Assembly: GCA_016938675.1 (NCBI GenBank)
Contig: JAFGUF010000014.1
Location: 6,668 to 70,667 of the forward strand
From: Clostridia bacterium
Lineage (GTDB): Bacteria; Bacillota; Clostridia; Christensenellales; UMGS416
DNA length: 64,000 nucleotides
Reading direction: 5' to 3'
This document shows positions 50,670-64,000 of this stretch, in pieces. The first letter of the stretch is position 1; the number at the start of each line of letters is the position of its first letter. The notes beneath the pieces were generated by a model. The model ran no database searches and was not told the DNA's origin. It saw nothing but the letters and a program-made list of their open reading frames with translations. A program made the position numbers and the translations under genes.

Positions 50670-52178
50670 CTACTGACCCACCACATCGCCGGAAAAAAGC
50701 GGCGGAAGATTGAAAAGCTCCTGCATATCAATATACACCTGCGCATCCTTAGAGCGCCAACCGCCATGAGTGGGCGATTTCGCCTGACTGACTATAACGG
50801 TGTCTGCAAGAGTCTCCCTTAGTTCTGCAATCTGGCTGCCTGAAAAATATGTACTCACTATCCAAAGCCTCTCAAGCTGAGTCATCTCAAGCAGCGCGCC
50901 TGTGTCCCGCGCGAAGGTCATGCTGCAGTTCAAGTGCTTAAGGTTTGCAAGATTGGTCAACGGATAAAGATCCGACACGCCGGTGTTGAAAATCTCCAGA
51001 TACATCAAGTTATCAAGCCCTGAAATAGGCGACAGATCCTTGATTCCGGTCATAGCCACTATCAGGTACTGAAGTTCCGACATATATTCAAGGAATGAAA
51101 AATCCGTAAGATGCCACTGATGCCCTAAATCCAAAGCTATCAAATCCGTGCAGTATTTAAGCTCGGTTGTATCCTCATCATAAAGATTTCTGCCGCCTCC
51201 GAGGAAATATCCGCCTTCAAATTCTTCCATGTTTCCCGTGCTGAATGCCTTTATATCTGTGCGTATCTCCCAGTTCCTTACGTGAATCATCCATACGAAT
51301 TTTTTGTCCGGGTAGTTATTCTGCAACGTTTCCATCTCTTCATTGGATAGCCCGCAGTAGCACATATCAATGTATTCTGCATTCGGAAGCATGGCAATCT
51401 CGTCATTCAGCTTCTCAAAGTCGTCTATAATAGTTCCTGATATATCTATATTTGTAGTATCGGGAGTAATCAGCCTGCCTGCTAGCTCCGCATCCCAAAT
51501 GATTTCTGTATCGGGAAAGGCATCCTTAAGCTCAGCTGTTTCATCCGGATTCAATATGGAAACACCGAAATACACCTGCCTTAGATCATCGAAGTAGAAG
51601 AGCGAATTCACAAGGCTTTCTATATCCACTTTATCCAGTGCCAGGATTTCTATATTGCTTTCATCATTGGTGAAAGTATAGTTGCCTATCTCAATATTAA
51701 CTTTGAATGATGCATTAGGATAAGCATCTTTAAGGGCTCTGTATCCCTCCGGCGGAATGCCGCCGCTTTTTAATAGGACCTCTCTAAGATTATAAAAGAA
51801 GCTGAGTTTATATATTAATTCGTCTGTATCATCTGTTGTGCACATTGAAATATCCAGCGATGCAGCGCTGCTATCATAATTATTGCCGCAGATATTTACA
51901 TCAAAAATCACTCTGCAATCCGGCAGCTGTGTGCGTATATATTCCGCGTCGCTCAATGATATTCCAGTGTCCCGCAGGTCAATCTGCTTAAGGTTATAAA
52001 GCTGATAAACAGCTGAAAAGTCGGAAATGCTGCTCCCTTTAAGGTCGAGCTCTTGTGTATCGACGGGTATCTCCTCGCCGCTTATATTAACTGTCTCTAT
52101 TTTTTCCTCACCTGTGCAGCCGAAAACCGAAACGGAGGCCAGCGCAAGCAGCATAAGCAGAAATGTTTTTTTGTTCAT
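50670..52178 (-). CDS. leucine-rich-repeat lipoprotein (502 aa)
   Basis: Lipobox VSVFGC. LRRs such as IKDLSPISGLDNLMYLEIFNTGVSDLYPLTNLANLKHL. Confidence 0.75.
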   Translation of the reverse strand: MNKKTFLLMLLALASVSVFGCTGEEKIETVNISGEEIPVDTQELDLKGSSISDFSAVYQLYNLKQIDLRDTGISLSDAEYIRTQLPDCRVIFDVNICGNNYDSSAASLDISMCTTDDTDELIYKLSFFYNLREVLLKSGGIPPEGYRALKDAYPNASFKVNIEIGNYTFTNDESNIEILALDKVDIESLVNSLFYFDDLRQVYFGVSILNPDETAELKDAFPDTEIIWDAELAGRLITPDTTNIDISGTIIDDFEKLNDEIAMLPNAEYIDMCYCGLSNEEMETLQNNYPDKKFVWMIHVRNWEIRTDIKAFSTGNMEEFEGGYFLGGGRNLYDEDTTELKYCTDLIALDLGHQWHLTDFSFLEYMSELQYLIVAMTGIKDLSPISGLDNLMYLEIFNTGVSDLYPLTNLANLKHLNCSMTFARDTGALLEMTQLERLWIVSTYFSGSQIAELRETLADTVIVSQAKSPTHGGWRSKDAQVYIDMQELFNLPPLFSGDVVGQ

Positions 52179-52209
52179 ATATTAATTCACCAATATTTCC
52201 GGAATATTT

Positions 52210-54627
52210 TTAGTGCGTGTAGAAATTTTCAAGCTCAGCAGGCACCATATCCGAAACCCCGAAATATACTATCTCCTGCACCGGACGATGGACAAAGTAC
52301 GTAGCGTTTACCTTATGGGTATTTAAAAACCTACCCATAAATACAACTGACGATGACAGCCCGCCATCTAAGTTGTATGCAACAGAGCAGCCCAGCTTCA
52401 TGAAATACCCCGACAAGTCATAGAATGTCATTCCCCTGTTCACCCAATCTTCCCGTCCGTCTGCTACGATGTTTACATAATGCCCCGGCTCAACCATGCC
52501 CCACGCACAGCGTGGATTGGTGCGCGAAAGGAAATAACCCGGCTGCAGGCTCTCCGGCGTTCTTTCACCATCCCTTACAAGTATCGGCCCGAAGGAGAGC
52601 ATGTTCATAACGCCTGCATCCAGCAGCTCGCCGTAGGTTATTCCGTCCTCTTTCATATAGGCGGCCATTGTTCCGTCCGGATACATTGCGAGAAAATCGC
52701 GGTTCTCGTTTGGCACGTCGTGTATCTCTTCTTCGCTGTACTCGTAGTTTTTCGCCTTCATTCCGTCGAAAACCCGACCGTCCCTTATGACCTTGGCAAT
52801 CCATGGATTCTCTCCCGTTATGGCAAAGTCCGAATTAGTGGCAAATACTGCCTTGTTGATTATCGCTATATCGTCCACCTGCTCGCAGCCGTACACGCCC
52901 GGAGCCTGCTTGTTGCTATAGCCTATGTCGAACCCCGAATGGTCCTTAGTTCTAATATTTGTTATGTATATCATGGTTTCCACGGCTTCATCATACACCG
53001 CTTCTATCCTAACGCTCAAGTTCGGCGAACTGTAGCACCAGAAATCATCAAGCTCTGTTACAATCTCATCCGCTGTGAAAAATTCTTCTTCTGTTGGCCT
53101 GTTTTCCTCAATAACCTTTTTATTTCTATCAAGCATCTCCGTGTTTATTTCCATGAATTCTGCTTTTCTGCCGGGTGACTGGGGCATAATGCCCTCACTA
53201 AAAAAGTAGTTTCCCTGTGCATCTTTAATAAAGAGCATATTTTCTTCGTATAGAATATTTATCACTTCATATTGCGGCGTTTTCAGCGGGCTTTGCATTG
53301 AGTGATAAAGCTTTTTGGGGATGTTTATTTCCGTGTAAATATTCTGCCGCATTCCGCCTGCGCATTCAGAGCCTGCAAGATTAAACATTGCCGTTTCTCC
53401 CAGCACGCCTATAATATTGTTAATGTCCCCTTCGTTGCTTTCCTTCATCATGGCTATCCTCTGTGAATTTTCAAATGAGGAATCAGCATAGTATACATGC
53501 TCGTCAAAGTTGTTTTTCATATCGAAATAGTATACGAAGTATTCATCAAACGCATACGCGTGCAGCATTTCTTCGCGCATAATCTCCGTCGATTCTCCGT
53601 CTGCATAAAAGTAGAATACATGAATGGAATCATGGGAATTATCAAGCCTCTCTGTATAATAAATCCCGTTGCCCTTGGGCTGCATCTCAATTACATTATT
53701 CGCCGATATCACTTCTTCAATTTCGAAATTCCTGTTCATCTTTAGCAGGCCCTTTGCGTAGGACAGGGCATAAAATGTGTCGCCGACGCTTATTAAGTCG
53801 AAGTAATCCCCTGCCTTAACCATCGTAAGCTCTGTGCCGTCTGTTTTCATTTCATAGATATTATATGGCGCTTCAATCATCAGCCCCCTGCCAAGCTCCT
53901 CGCCGGCAATGAAATAGATATATTCTCCTACGATATTTATTGACTGTATTCTGAAAGCTCCTGTCATGTCAGTAAGCGCCAGCAGCTCCGTTTTCCCTGT
54001 TTCGTAGCAGCACTTTGCTATGGAATGCACACCGTCTTTTTCAACCGGAAAGTATGCATATCCTTCGCTATAGGCCAGCGAATTGACATAGGGGCTGCGG
54101 CCTGCGGCTCCGCTTTCTGCGGCAGCGTCCCACTGTGCGCTGCGATCTATTATATCAGCGAGCACATTCTGCGCATTTTGATAGTTTTCGTCTGCTTCAA
54201 TAACAAGTGAAAGGTATTCCGCCGCAGCATCAAAATCCCTGTTTGAATATAGCAGCATACCTTCAGCATAGTCTTCGCCGGATTTTATAATTACCTGTTC
54301 ATTTGCAATAATGCCCTCAAGCGTCTGATCGATTTCTTCAGTTTTATAATCTAGAATTAGAAAATCATTCATTATTTTCATGGCTTCCTCAGCTGATCCC
54401 GCACTCTGCGCCATGGCCTTTATCTCATCAGCGCAGCTATCCAGAGACTGATTCAGCAAAGCTCTTGTTTCCTCGTCTGCCGCATCGTAGATATTCTTTG
54501 CGCCTGCGTAGTCGCCCGCATTGAGCAGCCCTTCAAATTCTGCTTGAGCCTGGCTGTAGTCGGTGTTTTGGCACGAGGCCAGCAAAAGGAGTATTATAAG
54601 CGGAAATAGTATAATCTTTTTCTTCAT
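52210..54627 (-). CDS. lipoprotein paralog of 48000..50480: TPR-like / beta-propeller / phosphodiester glycosidase (805 aa)
   Basis: Lipobox LLLASC. YIYFIAGE...PYNIYEMKTDGTEL. The C-terminus is ...GMTFYDLSGYFMKLGCSVAYNLDGGLSSSVVF. Confidence 0.7.
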   Translation of the reverse strand: MKKKIILFPLIILLLLASCQNTDYSQAQAEFEGLLNAGDYAGAKNIYDAADEETRALLNQSLDSCADEIKAMAQSAGSAEEAMKIMNDFLILDYKTEEIDQTLEGIIANEQVIIKSGEDYAEGMLLYSNRDFDAAAEYLSLVIEADENYQNAQNVLADIIDRSAQWDAAAESGAAGRSPYVNSLAYSEGYAYFPVEKDGVHSIAKCCYETGKTELLALTDMTGAFRIQSINIVGEYIYFIAGEELGRGLMIEAPYNIYEMKTDGTELTMVKAGDYFDLISVGDTFYALSYAKGLLKMNRNFEIEEVISANNVIEMQPKGNGIYYTERLDNSHDSIHVFYFYADGESTEIMREEMLHAYAFDEYFVYYFDMKNNFDEHVYYADSSFENSQRIAMMKESNEGDINNIIGVLGETAMFNLAGSECAGGMRQNIYTEINIPKKLYHSMQSPLKTPQYEVINILYEENMLFIKDAQGNYFFSEGIMPQSPGRKAEFMEINTEMLDRNKKVIEENRPTEEEFFTADEIVTELDDFWCYSSPNLSVRIEAVYDEAVETMIYITNIRTKDHSGFDIGYSNKQAPGVYGCEQVDDIAIINKAVFATNSDFAITGENPWIAKVIRDGRVFDGMKAKNYEYSEEEIHDVPNENRDFLAMYPDGTMAAYMKEDGITYGELLDAGVMNMLSFGPILVRDGERTPESLQPGYFLSRTNPRCAWGMVEPGHYVNIVADGREDWVNRGMTFYDLSGYFMKLGCSVAYNLDGGLSSSVVFMGRFLNTHKVNATYFVHRPVQEIVYFGVSDMVPAELENFYTH

Positions 54628-54996: not shown

Positions 54997-56112
54997 TTAG
55001 AATGGATAATCTCCTACGTTTTCAGCTGTGAAAACTACGCGTTCTGGAAGAAGAACTACACCGTTGTTTACAGCAGCAGTTGGAGCACCCGGAACTAATT
55101 CGTCGTTTGTTACGATTGAACATTCGCCGATTCCCGGTACGTCGATTACATCACCAGCTGCAACTTCGTTGCCTGCTGCAAGGTATGCTGCGAAGTAGCA
55201 TCCCAATGCGCCCTGGATACCGCAGTCCCAAAGTCCCCATTGCTCAACTATGCCAGCTTCGAGATATGCTGTCATACCTGATGGTGTGCAGAAGCCTGTG
55301 ATTGTGATGTCGTCTTTTGTCAGGCCCTTGTTCTGTGCTGCCTGGCTTTGTCCCGGAAGAGCTGTTGAGTCGTTGCAGATGATTAAGTCAATGTCAGGAT
55401 ATGCATCCAGTATTGATTCACCAATAGAAACTGACTTCTGTGAATCCTGCTCTGAATAGAAAGGATCAGCAACTGCTACCCAATTCGGATACTTTTCTTT
55501 GATATATGCTTCGCCTGCTACATACCATGAATTCTGGTCAGCAACTGCAGCCTGTGAATAGTGCCAAACGTACTGTACTTCGCCGTTTACATCAACGCCG
55601 CGGTTTGTTAATGCGTCTGCACCCATATCAACCAGCATTTCGCCCAATATCTGTGGTGTTCCCTGAGAAACCATCAATGAACGTGCGTCTTCTGATACGT
55701 CAGAGTCCCATGTTGTTACAACGATGCCCATATCCTGAGCTTCCTTAAGCTTTTCATCCAATGCTTTTGCATCAACTGATGAGATAGCAATTGCGTCTAC
55801 ACCTGCGTCGATTGCCTGTTGGATAACTTCCAGCTGGTCTGTAACAGAAGCTGTAGCGCTGCCCATATACTTAACTTCGATTCCCCACTGCTCTGCATAC
55901 TTCTGAGCTCCGTCATTAGCTGCTTCGAAGAATGAGTTACCTGTAAGTTTCGGGATAAAAGCAACAGTCATACCTTCTATACTACCTGCTGTTTCTACTA
56001 CTTGTTGTCCGTTGTCTGCTGATGTATTGTCGCCGGCTGTCTCATCTTTTGAGCAAGCTGAAAGTGACAATATCATTACTAATACTAGCAATACCGCAAA
56101 TAACTTTTTCAT
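54997..56112 (-). CDS. lsrB: autoinducer-2 (AI-2) binding lipoprotein LsrB
   Basis: It aligns by eye with recalled E. coli LsrB. Matching blocks: FIPKL.G..FF, WDSD, QGTPQ.LGEMLVDM, and the C-terminus GVVLLPERVVFTAENVGDYPF versus [21 protein letters not shown]. Lipobox LSAC. Confidence 0.85.
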   Translation of the reverse strand: MKKLFAVLLVLVMILSLSACSKDETAGDNTSADNGQQVVETAGSIEGMTVAFIPKLTGNSFFEAANDGAQKYAEQWGIEVKYMGSATASVTDQLEVIQQAIDAGVDAIAISSVDAKALDEKLKEAQDMGIVVTTWDSDVSEDARSLMVSQGTPQILGEMLVDMGADALTNRGVDVNGEVQYVWHYSQAAVADQNSWYVAGEAYIKEKYPNWVAVADPFYSEQDSQKSVSIGESILDAYPDIDLIICNDSTALPGQSQAAQNKGLTKDDITITGFCTPSGMTAYLEAGIVEQWGLWDCGIQGALGCYFAAYLAAGNEVAAGDVIDVPGIGECSIVTNDELVPGAPTAAVNNGVVLLPERVVFTAENVGDYPF

Positions 56113-56171
56113 TTTATCCTCCTTGTTATGTTTGTTTATTTCTAATTAGAGTAGGATTACTCTAAACTTAT

Positions 56172-57230
56172 CTACTCAATGCTATGTTCTTTCCTGAACA
56201 ATTTTCTTATGTAAGACGATGTCCTTGGGTTGGATGCCAGCTCCCTGGCCGAAACTACCAGAACCAGCATTATGCCAATAGGCAAATCCAGATTCTGCGT
56301 GCTTACTCCGAAGCAAAGCGGCAGCCCATACCTTAAAATAACTATTGCAAGCGCTGCCAGCGCCGTGCCGATTATGCTGCCTTTGCCGCCCGTTGAGAGC
56401 GTGCCGCCCAGAACAACCGCCGTAATTATAGAAAGGGTGAATGTCGACCCCAGATTATACTTTGCTGAGTCTACATTTGCAGTCAGAAGTACGCCTGCTA
56501 TTGCAGCACCAATGCCTGTTAATATATATGTGCTCATGATTATCCATCTGCTGTTTACTCCTGAGTACTCAGCCGCTTTCCTGTTTACGCCCACGAGGAA
56601 AACCTTGCGTCCGTATTTTGATTTGTGCAGCAGCCAGTAGCACAGTATGATCAAAGCAACGTATATGACTATCTGTATCGGTATTACGTCAAACAGCTTG
56701 TATTTGCCCAGTGCCCTGAAGGCGATGAACTCGCCTGCTTCGTTCTTTCCGGGAAAGCCGTTGATTCCCTGGTATGCAGGCGTTGCAGACAGCCCGGAGA
56801 CCAAAAGAGCAATACCTGAAAACAGGAAGCTTCCGCCCAATGTAACAACCATCGGCTGAACATTGCAGTAGGCTACTAAAAATCCTGAAAGCGCTCCTGC
56901 GAGCCCAGCTGTTATTATGGCCAATAGTACAGCCATCCATATATTCAGCCCGGCATCGCTCCATAGTACTCCGATCACTATGGATGTCAGCCCGACTATT
57001 GAGCTGGCCTGTATGTCAATGCCGCCGGTTATCATAACAAAGGTTACAAATAATGATATGATGCAAATACTGATATAATTGTTTATGCTTGAGAATATTG
57101 ATGCCGGCCTCATGAATTTTTCAAAGTCTGCCGCTCCGAATATAATGAATTCAGCAGCAATTATCATAACCAGGACAAATTCCCATTTGGTCACTATATC
57201 TTTTGTTTTCTGCAGAAATTTATTTTTCAT
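56172..57230 (-). CDS. lsrD: AI-2 ABC transporter permease LsrD
   Basis: Ribose-type (BPD_transp_2) permease in the third position of the A-C-D-B order. Confidence 0.7.
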   Translation of the reverse strand: MKNKFLQKTKDIVTKWEFVLVMIIAAEFIIFGAADFEKFMRPASIFSSINNYISICIISLFVTFVMITGGIDIQASSIVGLTSIVIGVLWSDAGLNIWMAVLLAIITAGLAGALSGFLVAYCNVQPMVVTLGGSFLFSGIALLVSGLSATPAYQGINGFPGKNEAGEFIAFRALGKYKLFDVIPIQIVIYVALIILCYWLLHKSKYGRKVFLVGVNRKAAEYSGVNSRWIIMSTYILTGIGAAIAGVLLTANVDSAKYNLGSTFTLSIITAVVLGGTLSTGGKGSIIGTALAALAIVILRYGLPLCFGVSTQNLDLPIGIMLVLVVSARELASNPRTSSYIRKLFRKEHSIE

Positions 57231-58245
57231 CAGCGCTATCCACCTTTACATCATTATGGCTTGAGGCTCTGGCAGCAAGCCTGGCCCTTCTCGCCTTTTC
57301 CACCGACCTTGTGTGCATCAGCGCGTCCGTGACTACAATAGTAATCAGCATAATTCCCTTTATTGTATTGTCAAAATCAGAAGACAGGCCTATAAATACC
57401 AGCAGCCTTCCTATTGTAGACATAATTACAGCGCCTATTCCTGCGCCAAGCAGGCTGCCTAATCCTCCGGAGAGGCTGACCCCGCCAAGCACGCACGCAG
57501 CAATCGCCGACATCTCATATCCGGAACCTGCCACAATATTTACCTGTCCGTACTTTGATGCAAATGCTACGCCTGCTACGGCAGCGAATATACCGGAGAG
57601 AATATAGGCAAGCACCTTTGTCCATACAACGGGTATGCCAATAAGGGTAGCTCCGCCGATGTTGTCGCCCACTGCTATAAAATTCTTTCCGCTTCTTGTC
57701 CTCGTCAGTATCAAATGCCCCGCAATGATTACAACAACCACGATTGAATAGTATATTGTAATATCGCCGAAAATTGTTTTGCTTCCAAGGTTTGTGAAGT
57801 CCCCTGCGAAATTCTCAACTGTGCGGCCGCCTGAATATACATATACCAGCCCTCTTACTATTCCCATTATTCCCAATGTGAATATCAATGAAGGCACTTT
57901 GATGATTGCTACACCCACGCCGTTTATGATGCCAACTGCTATTCCCAGAACAGCAGCATAAAGCAGCATCTCTGCTATGCTTCCGCCTCTTTGCGCAATT
58001 GTTCCCGCAATCGCCGCGGAAAGGCCCATGGTCGCTCCTATGGATACATCTATTTCACCTGTCATTATTACGAAGGCTATTCCCGCCGCAAGAAGAGTGA
58101 AAACAACGCTGCTGTTAAATGCGCTGATAATATTTTCATAGCTGAAAAATGTCGGGTTTATTATGCCTGTTACAGTAAATAGGATTATAAGGAATACAAG
58201 GCTTGACAACCATCTTACTCTACTTAATCTTTTAAGCAAATTCAT
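57220..58245 (-). CDS. lsrC: AI-2 ABC transporter permease LsrC
   Basis: Ribose-type permease whose start directly abuts the lsrA stop codon (no intergenic gap). Confidence 0.7.
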   Translation of the reverse strand: MNLLKRLSRVRWLSSLVFLIILFTVTGIINPTFFSYENIISAFNSSVVFTLLAAGIAFVIMTGEIDVSIGATMGLSAAIAGTIAQRGGSIAEMLLYAAVLGIAVGIINGVGVAIIKVPSLIFTLGIMGIVRGLVYVYSGGRTVENFAGDFTNLGSKTIFGDITIYYSIVVVVIIAGHLILTRTRSGKNFIAVGDNIGGATLIGIPVVWTKVLAYILSGIFAAVAGVAFASKYGQVNIVAGSGYEMSAIAACVLGGVSLSGGLGSLLGAGIGAVIMSTIGRLLVFIGLSSDFDNTIKGIMLITIVVTDALMHTRSVEKARRARLAARASSHNDVKVDSADEK

Positions 58246-59766
58246 TTAAATTGCCTCCTGATCCTTATATAGTCCGAATGAAGCAGCCGTGAGATTATCC
58301 ATAGTGATTTCCTTTTTGGTGAATTCTCTGTTGATTCTTCCGTTGAACACAGCAATGCTTCTGTCTGCCAGCTCGACAATCTCTTCCAAATCAGATGAAA
58401 TCAAAAGCACGGCTACGCCTTTGCTCTTCAGTTCATTTATTATTCTGTATACGTCCATACGTGCCGCTGCGTCTATGCCTCTTGTGGGTTCATCCAGAAT
58501 AACCAGTTTCGGAAGAGTAGACAGCGATTTGCCGATAACTACCTTTTGCTGGTTTCCGCCGGAGAGGCTGCCTGCCAGCTGGCCGTTATCTGTCACCTTT
58601 ATTCTAAAATCTTCAACGTACTTGCTGGTTAATTGCCTTTCTTTTTTCCTGTTAAGGGTGAACCTGCCCATATCTTTTCTGTCCAGCATCGAGGCCGTTA
58701 TATTCTCGCTCACTGCACTTATCTTAAACAATCCGTGATTGTGCCTGTCCTCCGGCACGAGGTTTATTCCTGCTTTCAGCATTGCGCTGGTTTTAAGCCC
58801 AGTTATATCCTTGCCCTCAAGCAGAACCTTGCCGCTCAAAGTCTTGTCCCTGCCGAATATTGTCCTTACCAGCTCTGTGCGGCCCGCGCCCACAACTCCT
58901 GCAAGGCCCAGTATCTCCCCCGGATAAACTCCGAATGAAATATTATTGAATCCATAGCCGCTGTAATCTTTCAGTTCAAATACCGGCTTTAGGTTCTTAT
59001 AATCAATTGTTTTTAGTTCAGTTTCCGCCTTTTCTTTCTGCTCGCAGTTGGAAGGCATCAGGCCCTTTATCAGCATTTCTCTGTTGAAATCCTCTACCTG
59101 TCCATCAAGGGTTATAATGCCGTCGCACATAATAGATACATGTGTCGCGATTTCAAAAACCTCTGAAAGCCTGTGCGTAATATATATAATGCCTATTCCC
59201 TTGTCTTTCAGGTCCTTAACCACCTTGAAGAAGCTTGCTACTTCGTCAAATGTAAGCGCTGATGTAGGTTCATCCAGAATGAGTATTTTCGCTTCTCTTA
59301 GAAGCCCTCTGATAATCTCAACCAATGTCTGCTCAGCAATTGACAAGCTGCTTGCGCTGCGCTCCAAATCCAGCTCCCAGCCTATTGACTGCATTAATTC
59401 AACGATTTTTTTCTTCAGCTCGGACTGCTTTCCTTTGAAGCCCATTGTTATGTTCTCTTCAACTGTCATATTAGGAAAAAGCATCGGCTCCTGCGGAACC
59501 ATATATATCCCTGCAGCCAATGCAGCGGATGCATTGGACAGGTGCAGCTGCTTGCTATTTACATATATGCTGCCTTTATCACTTTGATAGATACCCATGA
59601 TTATTTTCATGAGCGTGCTTTTGCCTGCTCCGTTGCCGCCGATTAGGGCGAGCACTTCGCCGGCCTTGAGCTCCAGGTCTATTCCCCGTAATACAAGGTT
59701 GCTTCCAAAGGACTTATATATCTTTTCTATGCATAAAAGTTTTTCGTTTGTTTCGCTTTTTCCCAT
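58246..59766 (-). CDS. lsrA: AI-2 ABC transporter ATP-binding protein LsrA (duplicated ATPase)
   Basis: Two Walker A / signature sets (GGNGAGKST; LSIAEQ / LSGGNQQK). I prefer the start at MGKSETNEK (59766), which has GAGGA upstream. Confidence 0.8.
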   Translation of the reverse strand: MGKSETNEKLLCIEKIYKSFGSNLVLRGIDLELKAGEVLALIGGNGAGKSTLMKIIMGIYQSDKGSIYVNSKQLHLSNASAALAAGIYMVPQEPMLFPNMTVEENITMGFKGKQSELKKKIVELMQSIGWELDLERSASSLSIAEQTLVEIIRGLLREAKILILDEPTSALTFDEVASFFKVVKDLKDKGIGIIYITHRLSEVFEIATHVSIMCDGIITLDGQVEDFNREMLIKGLMPSNCEQKEKAETELKTIDYKNLKPVFELKDYSGYGFNNISFGVYPGEILGLAGVVGAGRTELVRTIFGRDKTLSGKVLLEGKDITGLKTSAMLKAGINLVPEDRHNHGLFKISAVSENITASMLDRKDMGRFTLNRKKERQLTSKYVEDFRIKVTDNGQLAGSLSGGNQQKVVIGKSLSTLPKLVILDEPTRGIDAAARMDVYRIINELKSKGVAVLLISSDLEEIVELADRSIAVFNGRINREFTKKEITMDNLTAASFGLYKDQEAI

Positions 59767-59857
59767 ATCGTCCTCACTTCTTTGCTGTACATTTGTTAAA
59801 ATACACATTTTTTCGAGTATTTAACATTTGTTTTCTGTTAAATCATTTGTTTCTTCA

Positions 59858-59886
59858 ATAATAATTCACTTTGTACATTTTGTCAA
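59858..59886 (-). promoter_or_regulatory. sigma-70-type promoter candidate for lsrACDB
   Basis: On the minus strand: TTGACA, 17 nt, TATTAT. Confidence 0.45.
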
Positions 59887-59916
59887 CAAAAATATTGATT
59901 TTTTGTGCTTTTTTCA

Positions 59917-59945
59917 TTGACAATGGCTATTTTAGCTGATATACT
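59917..59945 (+). promoter_or_regulatory. sigma-70-type promoter candidate for lsrR-lsrK
   Basis: TTGACA (59917..59922), 17 nt, TATACT (59940..59945). Confidence 0.45.
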
Positions 59946-60061
59946 TTGTTTATTGATAAACATTTTATCAGATTTGCAACATTTGTTTAGTAACAAAAAT
60001 AACGAGGCTAAACAATTGTTCAAAAAATAGTATATATTATTATTGGAAAGGGCCTATAAGT

Positions 60062-60991
60062 ATGCGTGAAAGCAACCTAATAATGAAAATTGCGTGGTTT
60101 TACTATATTGACAACCTGACTCAGCAGCAAATCGCCGAGAAACTGGATATTTCACGCATGAAAGTAATTAAATATTTAAATCAGGCCAAGACGGAAGGCG
60201 TTGTACAGTTCAAAATAAACAAAAACGCTGAAAACAGAGTTCAGGCTGAAGTAAAGCTTATAGAAAAATATGGCCTTGATGATGTTTTCGTAGTGCCCAA
60301 TTCAGGCAGCGAAGATCTAAACGACACAATAGCCCAGGCTGCTGCGCAGTATATTGAGGAAAAGAGCAAACCGGGAGATTATATTAATATAGGCTACGGC
60401 GACACAGTATCAAAGACTGTAAGCCATCTCATCTACGCGGTGGAAAAGCCGCTTTCTCTGGTCTCGTTATCCGGCGGGGTTTCCTTCTACACCTCGTCCA
60501 TAATCAACGGCGCACATAAAAAAACTGCCTCTTCACCCACACCTAATATATATGTTGTGCCCGCACCTCTTGTTGCATCCAGCAAGGAAGTTGCTCAGAC
60601 CATTTTGAAAGAGTCATCCATAAAGGAAATACTGGATATGACGCAGCTGGCGTCCATGTCCGTTGTGGGTATAGGGGCAGTAACAAACACGGCAACAATA
60701 TTTAAATATAATATAGTAAGCAATAACGACCTCGTTCTCCTGCAGATGCAGGGGGCAGTCGGCGATATACTCAGCCACTTCTATGACAAAGACGGCAACA
60801 TAATAGAAAACGAGCTCAACGCCAGACTGATAAGCTCCGATTTGTCATTGCTTAAAAACGGCAAAAAGGTAATCGGCGTAGCAGGAGGAAAAGACAAGGT
60901 GACTGCTATACATTCAGCTTTGTCAGGCAAGCTAGTCAATGTATTCATAACAGACGAAGACACAGCGGCAAGATTGCTGGAATATAAATAG
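60062..60991 (+). CDS. lsrR: SorC-family transcriptional repressor LsrR
   Basis: N-terminal HTH (LTQQQIAEKLDISRMKVIKYL) plus a sugar-phosphate-binding domain. It is divergent from lsrA and upstream of lsrK. Confidence 0.8.
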   Translation: MRESNLIMKIAWFYYIDNLTQQQIAEKLDISRMKVIKYLNQAKTEGVVQFKINKNAENRVQAEVKLIEKYGLDDVFVVPNSGSEDLNDTIAQAAAQYIEEKSKPGDYINIGYGDTVSKTVSHLIYAVEKPLSLVSLSGGVSFYTSSIINGAHKKTASSPTPNIYVVPAPLVASSKEVAQTILKESSIKEILDMTQLASMSVVGIGAVTNTATIFKYNIVSNNDLVLLQMQGAVGDILSHFYDKDGNIIENELNARLISSDLSLLKNGKKVIGVAGGKDKVTAIHSALSGKLVNVFITDEDTAARLLEYK

Positions 60992-61015
60992 GACACAAGT
61001 CATTAAGGAGAAAAA

Positions 61016-62578
61016 ATGAGCAATTATCTGATGGCTATAGACGCAGGAACCGGAAGCCTCCGTTCTGTCATATTCGACCTCAATGGAAATCAGATTGCAG
61101 TTTCCCAGCAGGAATGGACGCACAACGAAGACCCTAGGTATCCTAATTCCATGGATTTTGACGTCGAAAAAAACTACGGGATAATGGTCAGCTGCGTAAA
61201 AGAAAGCATAAAAATGTCCGGGATTAACCCCCGCGACATTATTGCCATATCTTCAACCAGCATGCGAGAGGGCATCGTGCTCTATGATTCTGACGGCAGG
61301 GAGCTTTGGGCATGTGCCAATGTAGACGCGCGGGCAGACAAGGAAGTATCCCATCTTAAATCCCTTGGCAATGATATTGAGCAGGAAATCTATGAAGAAT
61401 CCGGCCAAACTTTTGCTCTCGGCGCTCTGCCGCGAGTGCTATGGGTTAAGAACCATATGCCTGAAGTCTATGAAAAAACAGCGGCTATAACCATGCTGAA
61501 CGACTGGATAACATACAGATTAACAGGGATATTATCGGTTGAGCCATCAAATGGCTGCACGACAGGCATGTTTGATTTGTCCAGCCGCAGCTGGGACAAT
61601 AAAATAGCGGAAAAGTGCGGGCTCAAAACAGACATCTATCCAACGGTATATGAATGCGGCAAGCCAATAGGAAAAATACTTCCGGAGATGGCATCAGAAT
61701 TCGGCCTATCAGAGGAATGCCTGATAGTGGCAGGCGGCGGAGACGCCAACCTAGGATGCATCGGCGTGGGCGTATGCTCGCCCGGGCAGGCTGCGCTATT
61801 CGGCGGCAGCTTCTGGCAGCTGGAATACAATGTTGACAAGCCAACTGTTGATAAAGACTGCAGGGTGCGCGTCAACTGCCATATTCTCGAAGATACATGG
61901 CAGTATGAGATGATAGCATTTTTCCCCGGCCTCATAATGAGATGGTTCAGGGATGCATTCTGCCAGATGGAAAAGCAAATTGCAGAACAAAGAGGAATAT
62001 CCGCGTATTCAGTGCTCGAAGAGCAGGCACGGGAAGTGCCCGTCGGATCCTACGGAATGATGTGCTCATTTTCAAGCGTAATGGACTACAAGGAGTGGAA
62101 GCATGCCTCGCCGGCATTTGTCAACTTCAATATTGATCCGTTAAAATTCAACAAAGGCACATTCTACAGAGCCTTAATGGAAAATGCGGCATTGGTTACT
62201 TTGGGACATTCAAAAATAATCAGCGAAGTAACCGGCAAAGAAATAAAGGAAGTAACATTCGCCTCCGGCGCTTCGCAGAGCGATTTATGGTGCCAGATAG
62301 TCTCTGATGTGCTGGGAGCAAAGGTAAAGATACCAAAGGTTAAGGAAGCGACCGCCCTAGGTACATCCATATGCGCAGGCGTAGGCGCAGGTGTATATTC
62401 AAGCATTGAAGATGCAGCAAATAAGCTGGTGAAGTTCGAAAAGGAATATACCCCCGACATGGAAAACCATAAAAAATATTTAGAAATATATAATACGTGG
62501 AAAGAGATAAACAAAACCCAGATGGAAAACTCGGACAGAGGACTTATATCTCATATGTGGAAAGCGCCGGGGCTATAA
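61016..62578 (+). CDS. lsrK: autoinducer-2 kinase LsrK (FGGY family)
   Basis: It aligns by eye with recalled E. coli LsrK. Matching blocks: YLMA.DAGTGS.R.VIFDL.GNQIAV, SMREGIVLY, WACANVDAR, MRWFRDAFC, VKEATALG, and the C-terminal WKAPGL. Confidence 0.9.
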   Translation: MSNYLMAIDAGTGSLRSVIFDLNGNQIAVSQQEWTHNEDPRYPNSMDFDVEKNYGIMVSCVKESIKMSGINPRDIIAISSTSMREGIVLYDSDGRELWACANVDARADKEVSHLKSLGNDIEQEIYEESGQTFALGALPRVLWVKNHMPEVYEKTAAITMLNDWITYRLTGILSVEPSNGCTTGMFDLSSRSWDNKIAEKCGLKTDIYPTVYECGKPIGKILPEMASEFGLSEECLIVAGGGDANLGCIGVGVCSPGQAALFGGSFWQLEYNVDKPTVDKDCRVRVNCHILEDTWQYEMIAFFPGLIMRWFRDAFCQMEKQIAEQRGISAYSVLEEQAREVPVGSYGMMCSFSSVMDYKEWKHASPAFVNFNIDPLKFNKGTFYRALMENAALVTLGHSKIISEVTGKEIKEVTFASGASQSDLWCQIVSDVLGAKVKIPKVKEATALGTSICAGVGAGVYSSIEDAANKLVKFEKEYTPDMENHKKYLEIYNTWKEINKTQMENSDRGLISHMWKAPGL

Positions 62579-62610
62579 GTTTTAGAATATATTGATACGA
62601 GAGGTGTAAC

Positions 62611-62949
62611 ATGCAATTAGTAAAAGAAAAAGATATTGAATATCGTTTTGGCGACAGCGGCCCGAAATACTTAAGAAAGGGCCCGAGATTAAGCGCAGGC
62701 GTAGTAGTTCTGCAGCCAGGCCAGGACTTCAAAAATCACTTCCACAACATAATGGAAGAAAGCTTTCTTATTCTGGAAGGTAAAGTAGATATATCAATAG
62801 ATGACACAGTGTATACCTGCGAGCCAGGCGATTTAATAACGGCAGAGCCCGGAGAAACACATCATCTGATGAACAACTACGATGAGCCAATGAAGGCCGT
62901 GTTTATGCTCGCGCCTTTCCAACTGCAGGATAAAGTGGAAGTTGAGTGA
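62611..62949 (+). CDS. cupin-domain protein (112 aa)
   Basis: Cupin motifs: G.DFKNHFH..MEESFLILEG and PGETHHLMN. Confidence 0.7.
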   Translation: MQLVKEKDIEYRFGDSGPKYLRKGPRLSAGVVVLQPGQDFKNHFHNIMEESFLILEGKVDISIDDTVYTCEPGDLITAEPGETHHLMNNYDEPMKAVFMLAPFQLQDKVEVE

Positions 62950-63006
62950 AAAGCAGCCTGCGGCGCAAAACAAAATAAGCAAACAAATTTTTAAGGAGTG
63001 TTAAAA

Positions 63007-63891
63007 ATGGCAGATAAAGATAATATAAAAGAAACCAAGGACTATGGGGTCGGAATCCCTCAGGCGACAAACGGATTCCATGTAAAAGGATGCAACAACT
63101 ATGGCTGGGGAATGAAATCCAGGCTGTCTAAGATATTTAATCCGCAAAGCGGAAGGACATTAATGCTGGCTTTCGACCACGGATATTTCTTAGGGCCTAC
63201 ATCAGGGCTTGAAAGGCTTGACCTGAAAATTCCGCCTCTGGCACCGTATATTGACGTATTTATGGGAACGCGCGGCGCGCTTTCTGCGTGCATCGAGCCG
63301 GCACTTTCCTATCAGAAGGCTGTCGCTCTTCGCTGCTCATCAGGCTCATCAATATTGAATGATGACTTGAGCTTTGAAAAGGTAAGCGTAAGCATAGAAG
63401 AAGCCGTAAGAATGAATGCCGACTGCATGGCTATTCAGGTATTTATAGGCGCAAAAGGCCAGCTTTCATCCATTGAAAACGTTTCAAAGGCAATAGACAC
63501 AGGCAATTCATACGGAATACCCACAATGGGCGTTGTAGCCGTTGGCAAGGAAATGGAGAGAACTCCTCAGTACTTCAGGTTAGCAACCAGAATGATCGCG
63601 GAATTCGGCGCGCAGATAGTAAAATGCTATTACTGTGATGATTTCGAAACAGTAACTGCATCCTGCCCCGTGCCAATAGTTATAGCGGGCGGCAAGAAGC
63701 TGCCTGAAAAAGAAGCGCTGGATATGTGCTACAATGCACTCGCCAGAGGCGCAGCAGGCGTGGACATGGGCAGGAATATATTCCAGTCCGATGCACCCGT
63801 TGCAATGGTTCAGGCTGTGCGCGCAATAGTTCACGACGGCATAGACAGCAAAGAAGCATACGATATGTACCAAGAGCTAAAGAATAAATAG
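63007..63891 (+). CDS. lsrF: 3-hydroxy-5-phosphonooxypentane-2,4-dione thiolase LsrF (DeoC/FbaB aldolase fold)
   Basis: MADKDNIKE...WGMKSRLSKIFNPQSGRTLMLAFDHGYFLGPTSGLER...CPVPIVIAGGKKLPEKEAL...GAAGVDMGRNIFQSDAPVAM closely parallels recalled E. coli LsrF. ATG is at 63007 with AAGGAG upstream. Confidence 0.9.
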   Translation: MADKDNIKETKDYGVGIPQATNGFHVKGCNNYGWGMKSRLSKIFNPQSGRTLMLAFDHGYFLGPTSGLERLDLKIPPLAPYIDVFMGTRGALSACIEPALSYQKAVALRCSSGSSILNDDLSFEKVSVSIEEAVRMNADCMAIQVFIGAKGQLSSIENVSKAIDTGNSYGIPTMGVVAVGKEMERTPQYFRLATRMIAEFGAQIVKCYYCDDFETVTASCPVPIVIAGGKKLPEKEALDMCYNALARGAAGVDMGRNIFQSDAPVAMVQAVRAIVHDGIDSKEAYDMYQELKNK

Positions 63892-64000
63892 CATTACTTC
63901 TCCTCTTATTTATTAATTTTAGAATCGGGTATAGAATGAACGATTCGAAAAACAACCTCGCTGAACTTTTCAGTGGGGTATTTTTTTGCTCTTCGATTGC

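Follow-up and report, generated by a model that had tools for sequence, protein, structure and literature searches.

The lsr locus and its cupin gene

The window, by which we mean the whole 64,000-nucleotide (nt) stretch of a Clostridia bacterium analyzed here (positions 6668-70667 of contig JAFGUF010000014.1, GenBank assembly GCA_016938675.1), carries an lsr locus, a set of genes for the signal autoinducer-2 (AI-2). Between the kinase gene lsrK and the thiolase gene lsrF of this locus lies a gene for a 112-amino-acid (aa) cupin, and no gene for the isomerase LsrG is present. Open reading frame (ORF) calls and profile searches placed the following features:

54997-56112, minus strand: lsrB, AI-2-type substrate-binding lipoprotein of 371 aa (Peripla_BP_4; top NCBIfam match LsrB, 303 bits against a cut-off of 384)
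56172-57230, minus strand: lsrD, permease of an ATP-binding cassette (ABC) transporter (BPD_transp_2; top NCBIfam match LsrD, 213 bits, under cut-off)
57220-58245, minus strand: lsrC, ABC permease (BPD_transp_2; top NCBIfam match LsrC, 226 bits, under cut-off)
58246-59808, minus strand: lsrA, double ATP-binding cassette protein (top NCBIfam match LsrA, 532 bits against a cut-off of 586)
59809-60061, no strand: divergent AT-rich control region with candidate LsrR operators (repeated AACA-N4-TGTT-like inverted repeats)
60062-60991, plus strand: lsrR, SorC/DeoR-type repressor (Sugar-bind domain and helix-turn-helix; top NCBIfam match LsrR, 232 bits, under cut-off)
61016-62578, plus strand: lsrK, autoinducer-2 kinase (NF008187 equivalog, 766 bits against a cut-off of 528)
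62611-62949, plus strand: 112-aa metal-binding cupin of an LsrK-partner family, candidate phospho-DPD isomerase (Cupin_2, PF07883, 55 bits)
63007-63891, plus strand: lsrF, 3-hydroxy-5-phosphonooxypentane-2,4-dione thiolase (NF006081 equivalog, 432 bits against a cut-off of 297, aligned from residue 4)
63955-63989, plus strand: intrinsic terminator-like hairpin closing the lsrR-lsrK-cupin-lsrF operon (11-pair stem and T run)

These calls bear out the gene arrangement given in a preliminary description of the window, two divergent gene sets with lsrBDCA on the minus strand and lsrR-lsrK-cupin-lsrF on the plus strand. LsrK and LsrF scored above their NCBIfam equivalog cut-offs; for LsrA, LsrB, LsrC, LsrD and LsrR the Lsr models ranked first, with all five scores under the equivalog cut-offs. 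The order of the transporter genes is shared with E. coli and with at least 80 related loci. Identity to the E. coli K-12 proteins is 49% for LsrK, 54% for LsrF and 40% for LsrB, and the Schiff-base lysine of E. coli LsrF (K203) is conserved as K209. LsrB has a signal peptide with a lipobox (LSAC), which marks it as a lipoprotein. Six residues of E. coli LsrB (K35, D116, D166, Q167, P220 and A222), matched to the E. coli sequence, are taken here as its contacts with AI-2; the first four are conserved in the window's protein, whereas P220 is replaced by N247 and A222 by S249. Since luxS is encoded on another contig of the same genome, the organism makes AI-2. An LsrK search across 400 genomes at the class level found the window's own genome alone above the cut-off.

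Within the operon, the gap between lsrK and the cupin gene is 32 nt and that between the cupin gene and lsrF about 55 nt. Each gap holds a ribosome-binding site, GAGAGG for the cupin gene and AAGGAG for lsrF, and a terminator looked for in both gaps was found in neither. The likely start of lsrF is the ATG at 63007 that follows AAGGAG; the ORF lister had placed it at a GTG at 62998. In the control region, inverted repeats lie at 59973-60025 and 59880-59923, and the AACA-N4-TGTT-like repeats of this region are possible operators for LsrR. In E. coli K-12, lsrRK is divergent from lsrACDBFG, and LsrK, LsrG and LsrF act in succession. The window locus resembles that system in its kinase, thiolase and divergent control region and probably in its transporter and repressor; it differs in lacking LsrG, in having lsrF in the kinase operon, in the cupin gene between lsrK and lsrF, and in an LsrB that is a lipoprotein with two of the six binding-site residues altered. 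As judged from sequence, the locus is best explained as a working Lsr system.

The preliminary description had noted that no LsrG-like gene of the ABM family occurs before the window ends, and this extends to the DNA beyond: 3' of the strong terminator-like hairpin lie convergent genes unrelated to lsr, whose products are a TetR regulator, a hydrolase, a CoA-transferase and an ABC transporter of the amino-acid type. A search of the whole genome (2.6 Mb, 96% complete), which that description had proposed, likewise found no LsrG homolog. The Pfam ABM model (PF03992) had no match in it, and the same model matched 13 of 14 control genomes; tblastn with E. coli LsrG and two alphaproteobacterial homologs also gave no match. 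The NCBIfam LsrG model (NF007791) had no match either, with a weak control in that the E. coli control genome also fell under its cut-off, so the absence of LsrG rests mainly on PF03992 and tblastn. Of five other genomes that carry the cupin, four have no ABM protein, and the fifth has one of a generic type encoded on another contig.

Linkage with lsrK and distribution relative to LsrG

A protein search with the cupin returned 646 homologs, many of them about 60% identical and from Clostridia, Spirochaetes and Fusobacteria; these close homologs are named merely "cupin domain-containing protein." We examined 85 loci selected through the cupin (5 from genomes and 80 from metagenomes), and an LsrG homolog was absent from all of them. 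In every locus whose contig extends upstream, the cupin gene lies directly 3' of an LsrK homolog, whatever the position of lsrF. Three layouts were seen. In the first, lsrBDCA is divergent from lsrR-lsrK-cupin-lsrF, as in the window, Acidaminobacter, a Bacillus and many metagenome contigs. The second, lsrF-B-D-C-A divergent from lsrR-lsrK-cupin, occurs in contigs from the human gut and in a plasmid of Lacticaseibacillus paracasei. The third is lsrK-cupin-lsrACDB. Because the layout of the window recurs elsewhere, it is ordinary for cupin-type lsr loci, and the "rearranged layout" of the preliminary description turns out to be a common one. Pairwise distances between cupins correlate with those between the LsrK proteins (r = 0.89; no correlation as strong arose in 2000 Mantel permutations), which indicates that the two genes travelled together. 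The gene 3' of the cupin encodes LsrF in 17 loci and an RbsD/FucU-family protein in 2; in the rest it is heterogeneous or without a Pfam match. We considered a hidden isomerase encoded 3' of the cupin and rejected it, as no other conserved gene follows the cupin gene.

To view the distribution from the side of the kinase, we used 13 records for which LsrK, not the cupin, was the basis of selection. The cupin alone was found in three of these, ABM alone in nine, both in one and neither in none. Sinorhizobium, Roseateles, Thalassospira, Paracoccus and Alloyangia have lsrR-lsrK-ABM without a cupin, the ABM protein being 41-54% identical to E. coli LsrG, and in the alphaproteobacterial loci the LsrG homolog thus fills the slot 3' of lsrK that the cupin gene occupies elsewhere. 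Roseicitreum, Klebsiella, Enterobacter and E. coli K-12 also have LsrG and no cupin; the reverse combination, a cupin without LsrG, occurs in Bacillus, Lacticaseibacillus and Deinococcus. In a tree of LsrK proteins the loci with the cupin are paraphyletic, and the ABM loci form one proteobacterial clade nested beside cupin-only Deinococcus and Bacillus. The cupin looks ancestral on this tree, and the only loci without it are those that have LsrG.

The pairing of the cupin with LsrK is already on record, and the window is a variant of the known Lsr system. The RAST role name "Cupin domain protein in AI-2-related operon" appears in PMC8876208, and a Salmonella transcriptome paper gives "STM4071-80" as the lsr set (PMC11000858). 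Our literature search found no paper mentioning both lsrG and a cupin and no published function for any LsrK-partner cupin. The Salmonella member of the family is presumably STM4071. The cupin of the window shares 51% identity with the Salmonella protein and 46% with a Bacillus one, and it belongs to the Salmonella-type LsrK-partner family by homology as well as by its position directly 3' of lsrK. The Salmonella-type cupins share with it the family and the slot and differ in that they coexist with LsrG. In the enterobacterial cupins (L102:11574-11924 and L105:12995-13345, the latter from E. coli MS 196-1) the metal ligands are kept, the position of E49 is a Cys, and M48, E56, L100 and K108 are also changed; the change of E49 and the others could reflect a relaxed or altered function. 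Horizontal acquisition of the E. coli MS 196-1 island (NZ_CP146681.1, 3984748-4011050) is suggested by its flanks, which hold insertion sequence remnants, a group II intron and fragments of toxin genes.

The cupin family and the possible role of the cupin

No NCBIfam model matches the cupin, and Cupin_2 is its sole domain. It has the two motifs of that family with the His-His-Glu and His ligands, and the AlphaFold2 model is a beta-barrel (predicted local distance difference test score 95.8). The metal ligands H43, H45, E50 and H84 are invariant in the family, as is an N-terminal YRFGD-GPKYL motif that includes R12 and K19; E49 is invariant in 38 non-redundant cupin-only loci. The protein is not a member of the LsrG/ABM family, having neither the ABM fold nor ABM sequence. 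LsrG, a (4S)-4-hydroxy-5-phosphonooxypentane-2,3-dione isomerase, is like the cupin in its size of about 100 aa, in its gene slot 3' of lsrK in alphaproteobacteria and in the reaction proposed here; its ferredoxin-like ABM fold is unrelated to the beta-barrel of the cupin. The cupin retains a metal site; LsrG, to our knowledge, works without a metal.

The best characterized neighbors of the cupin, both by profile (E 2e-14) and by fold (template modeling score 0.85), are the cupin-type phosphomannose isomerases of the archaeon Thermococcus (PDB 7zvy and 7zvm), which a single-sequence comparison also reached (E 3.5e-11, about 25-30% identity). They share a single-domain cupin fold of about 110 aa in which the His-His-Glu-His ligands align. 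Their alignment with the cupin begins at residue 29, the YRFGD-GPKYL motif has no counterpart in them, and their genomic context differs. These enzymes shift the carbonyl of a sugar phosphate through a metal-bound enediol, and by analogy this would be the chemistry needed to convert phosphorylated 4,5-dihydroxypentane-2,3-dione (phospho-DPD, or P-DPD) to 3-hydroxy-5-phosphonooxypentane-2,4-dione (P-HPD).

In the canonical route, LsrG converts P-DPD to P-HPD, and LsrF with coenzyme A (CoA) cleaves P-HPD to dihydroxyacetone phosphate (DHAP) and acetyl-CoA (PMC7168661). An isomerase would be needed at the window locus because LsrF is conserved with its catalytic lysine and is known to act on P-HPD, the compound that LsrG forms from P-DPD. 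Beyond the gene content and operon structure, the absence of LsrG, the metal site, the fold, and the linkage and co-evolution with LsrK described above, we infer a substrate and a reaction for the cupin. We propose, at about an even chance of being right, that it is LsrK's ancestral partner and isomerizes P-DPD in a metal-dependent reaction, as a non-homologous analog of the ABM-fold LsrG. In the proposed pathway, AI-2 made by LuxS would be re-imported through the lipoprotein LsrB and LsrACD, and LsrK would phosphorylate it to P-DPD, the inducer that releases LsrR. The cupin, co-transcribed directly 3' of lsrK, would then move the carbonyl of P-DPD by way of an enediol or enediolate, with the help of a metal bound by H43, H45, E50 and H84, and yield P-HPD, which LsrF would split with CoA into DHAP and acetyl-CoA.

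The idea that the cupin is a non-orthologous replacement for LsrG goes back to the preliminary description, and it was supported in part. In its favor are a locus complete but for LsrG, a genome without ABM, the LsrG homolog in the cupin's slot in alphaproteobacteria, the intact metal site, and nearest characterized relatives that are sugar-phosphate isomerases. Several observations weigh against it. Salmonella enterica has lsrR-lsrK-cupin divergent from lsrACDBFG-lsrE, with the cupin and canonical lsrG in one locus, and 125 of 5,426 complete E. coli genomes (about 2%) carry a Salmonella-type lsr island, again with both. We therefore rejected strict mutual exclusion of the two; they are not strictly exchangeable, and replacement is not the sole reading. 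Nor is the cupin simply "where lsrG should be," and it is tied to lsrK and not to lsrF. Free lsrK-cupin pairs occur with no lsrF, lsrR or lsrACDB nearby (L094:10001-11970 on a Deinococcus plasmid and L014:6239-8351), and with lsrF missing beside them the fate of P-HPD is unexplained there. The co-occurrence with lsrK and lsrF that was to be checked in other Firmicutes lsr loci was seen for lsrK, far beyond Firmicutes, and did not hold throughout for lsrF. With all ABM loci in a single LsrK clade, about three independent losses underlie the pattern that confines loss of the cupin to loci with LsrG. The 85 loci, chosen through the cupin, are uninformative on loci lacking it, and the genome in which LsrG is missing is only 96% complete.

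The coexistence of the cupin and LsrG in Salmonella-type loci would fit the main alternative, another step tied to the kinase, which we consider possible though rather unlikely. The cupin may open or tautomerize cyclic AI-2 to linear DPD, as KdgF-like enzymes do, or interconvert hydrates of P-DPD, and the conversion of P-DPD to P-HPD would then be spontaneous or run through LsrF where LsrG is absent. This is consistent with a cupin gene that always adjoins lsrK rather than lsrF and occurs also without lsrF, and KdgF (5fq0) is among the structural neighbors; however, it is a distant one, at 14% identity and rank 42. The cupin is also absent from 9 of the 10 LsrK-selected loci that have ABM, so its job appears dispensable exactly where LsrG exists. 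In addition, a dedicated ring enzyme of the RbsD/FucU family is found beside both cupin and ABM, and the pathway would be left without an isomerase despite a conserved LsrF. In a further reading, which we also regard as rather unlikely, the cupin does not duplicate LsrG but performs an unrecognized LsrK-coupled step of AI-2 processing; the LsrK-LsrG-LsrF pathway would then lack a step, in Salmonella too, and the ancient core of AI-2 (DPD) metabolism would consist of the kinase and the cupin.

It is improbable that the cupin is a non-catalytic partner that binds P-DPD as a ligand or modulates LsrK or LsrR. Its small size and its tight linkage and co-evolution with LsrK would suit such a role, but the metal site of three His and one Glu, the adjacent Glu and the basic residues R12 and K19 are invariant across phyla, as is typical of an enzyme, and the cupin has no DNA-binding or interaction domain. 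Least probable is an oxygen-dependent enzyme of the acireductone dioxygenase kind that cleaves the enediol of P-DPD: the sequence neighbors of the cupin include quercetin dioxygenase and further cupin dioxygenases, and this enediol would, from its chemistry, be an acireductone, but most family members come from anaerobic Clostridia and from gut and bioreactor metagenomes, and LsrF, which requires uncleaved five-carbon P-HPD, shares the operon.

AI-2 is the most widespread interspecies signal, and what becomes of it inside the cell has been established for E. coli and Salmonella only. If the cupin is the isomerase, most non-proteobacterial Lsr systems, including those of gut Clostridia, lactobacilli and the B. 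cereus group, would rely on another enzyme, one that depends on a metal, to terminate the signal, and LsrG would be a later proteobacterial addition. Annotation would then be corrected, as a locus without LsrG would no longer count as an incomplete Lsr system; the uncharacterized Salmonella gene would gain a function, and AI-2 quenching a new handle. Any other role for the cupin would mean that a step is missing from the canonical pathway.

Other genes in and around lsr loci

In the alphaproteobacterial and Roseateles lsr loci, a gene of the class II aldolase/adducin family (about 415 aa) ends the transporter operon in place of LsrF (L096:2917-4167, L097:2913-4166, L098:2825-4072, L099:3059-4300, L100:1670-3016 and L101:3018-4259). 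Among the loci fetched, it was found solely in those of the ABM type, and the window's genome has none. The exchange of LsrF for a class II aldolase looks like a second non-orthologous swap in the pathway.

RbsD/FucU-family genes occur in some lsr loci, beside either the cupin or ABM (L095:371-766, L015:2545-2952, L070:8363-8764 and L100:3424-3915), and their products are candidates for an enzyme that interconverts ring forms of AI-2. In one locus of the lsrK-cupin-lsrACDB layout, a 797-aa methyl-accepting chemotaxis protein (dCache, HAMP and CZB domains) is encoded directly 3' of lsrB (L054:13733-16126). On the Deinococcus plasmid, a major facilitator superfamily transporter gene lies upstream of the lsrK-cupin pair. 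To the left of the lsr locus in the window (50670-54627, minus strand) are two genes that seem unrelated to lsr, one encoding a leucine-rich-repeat protein of 502 aa and the other a protein of 805 aa whose C-terminal domain is of the NAGPA phosphodiester-glycosidase type.

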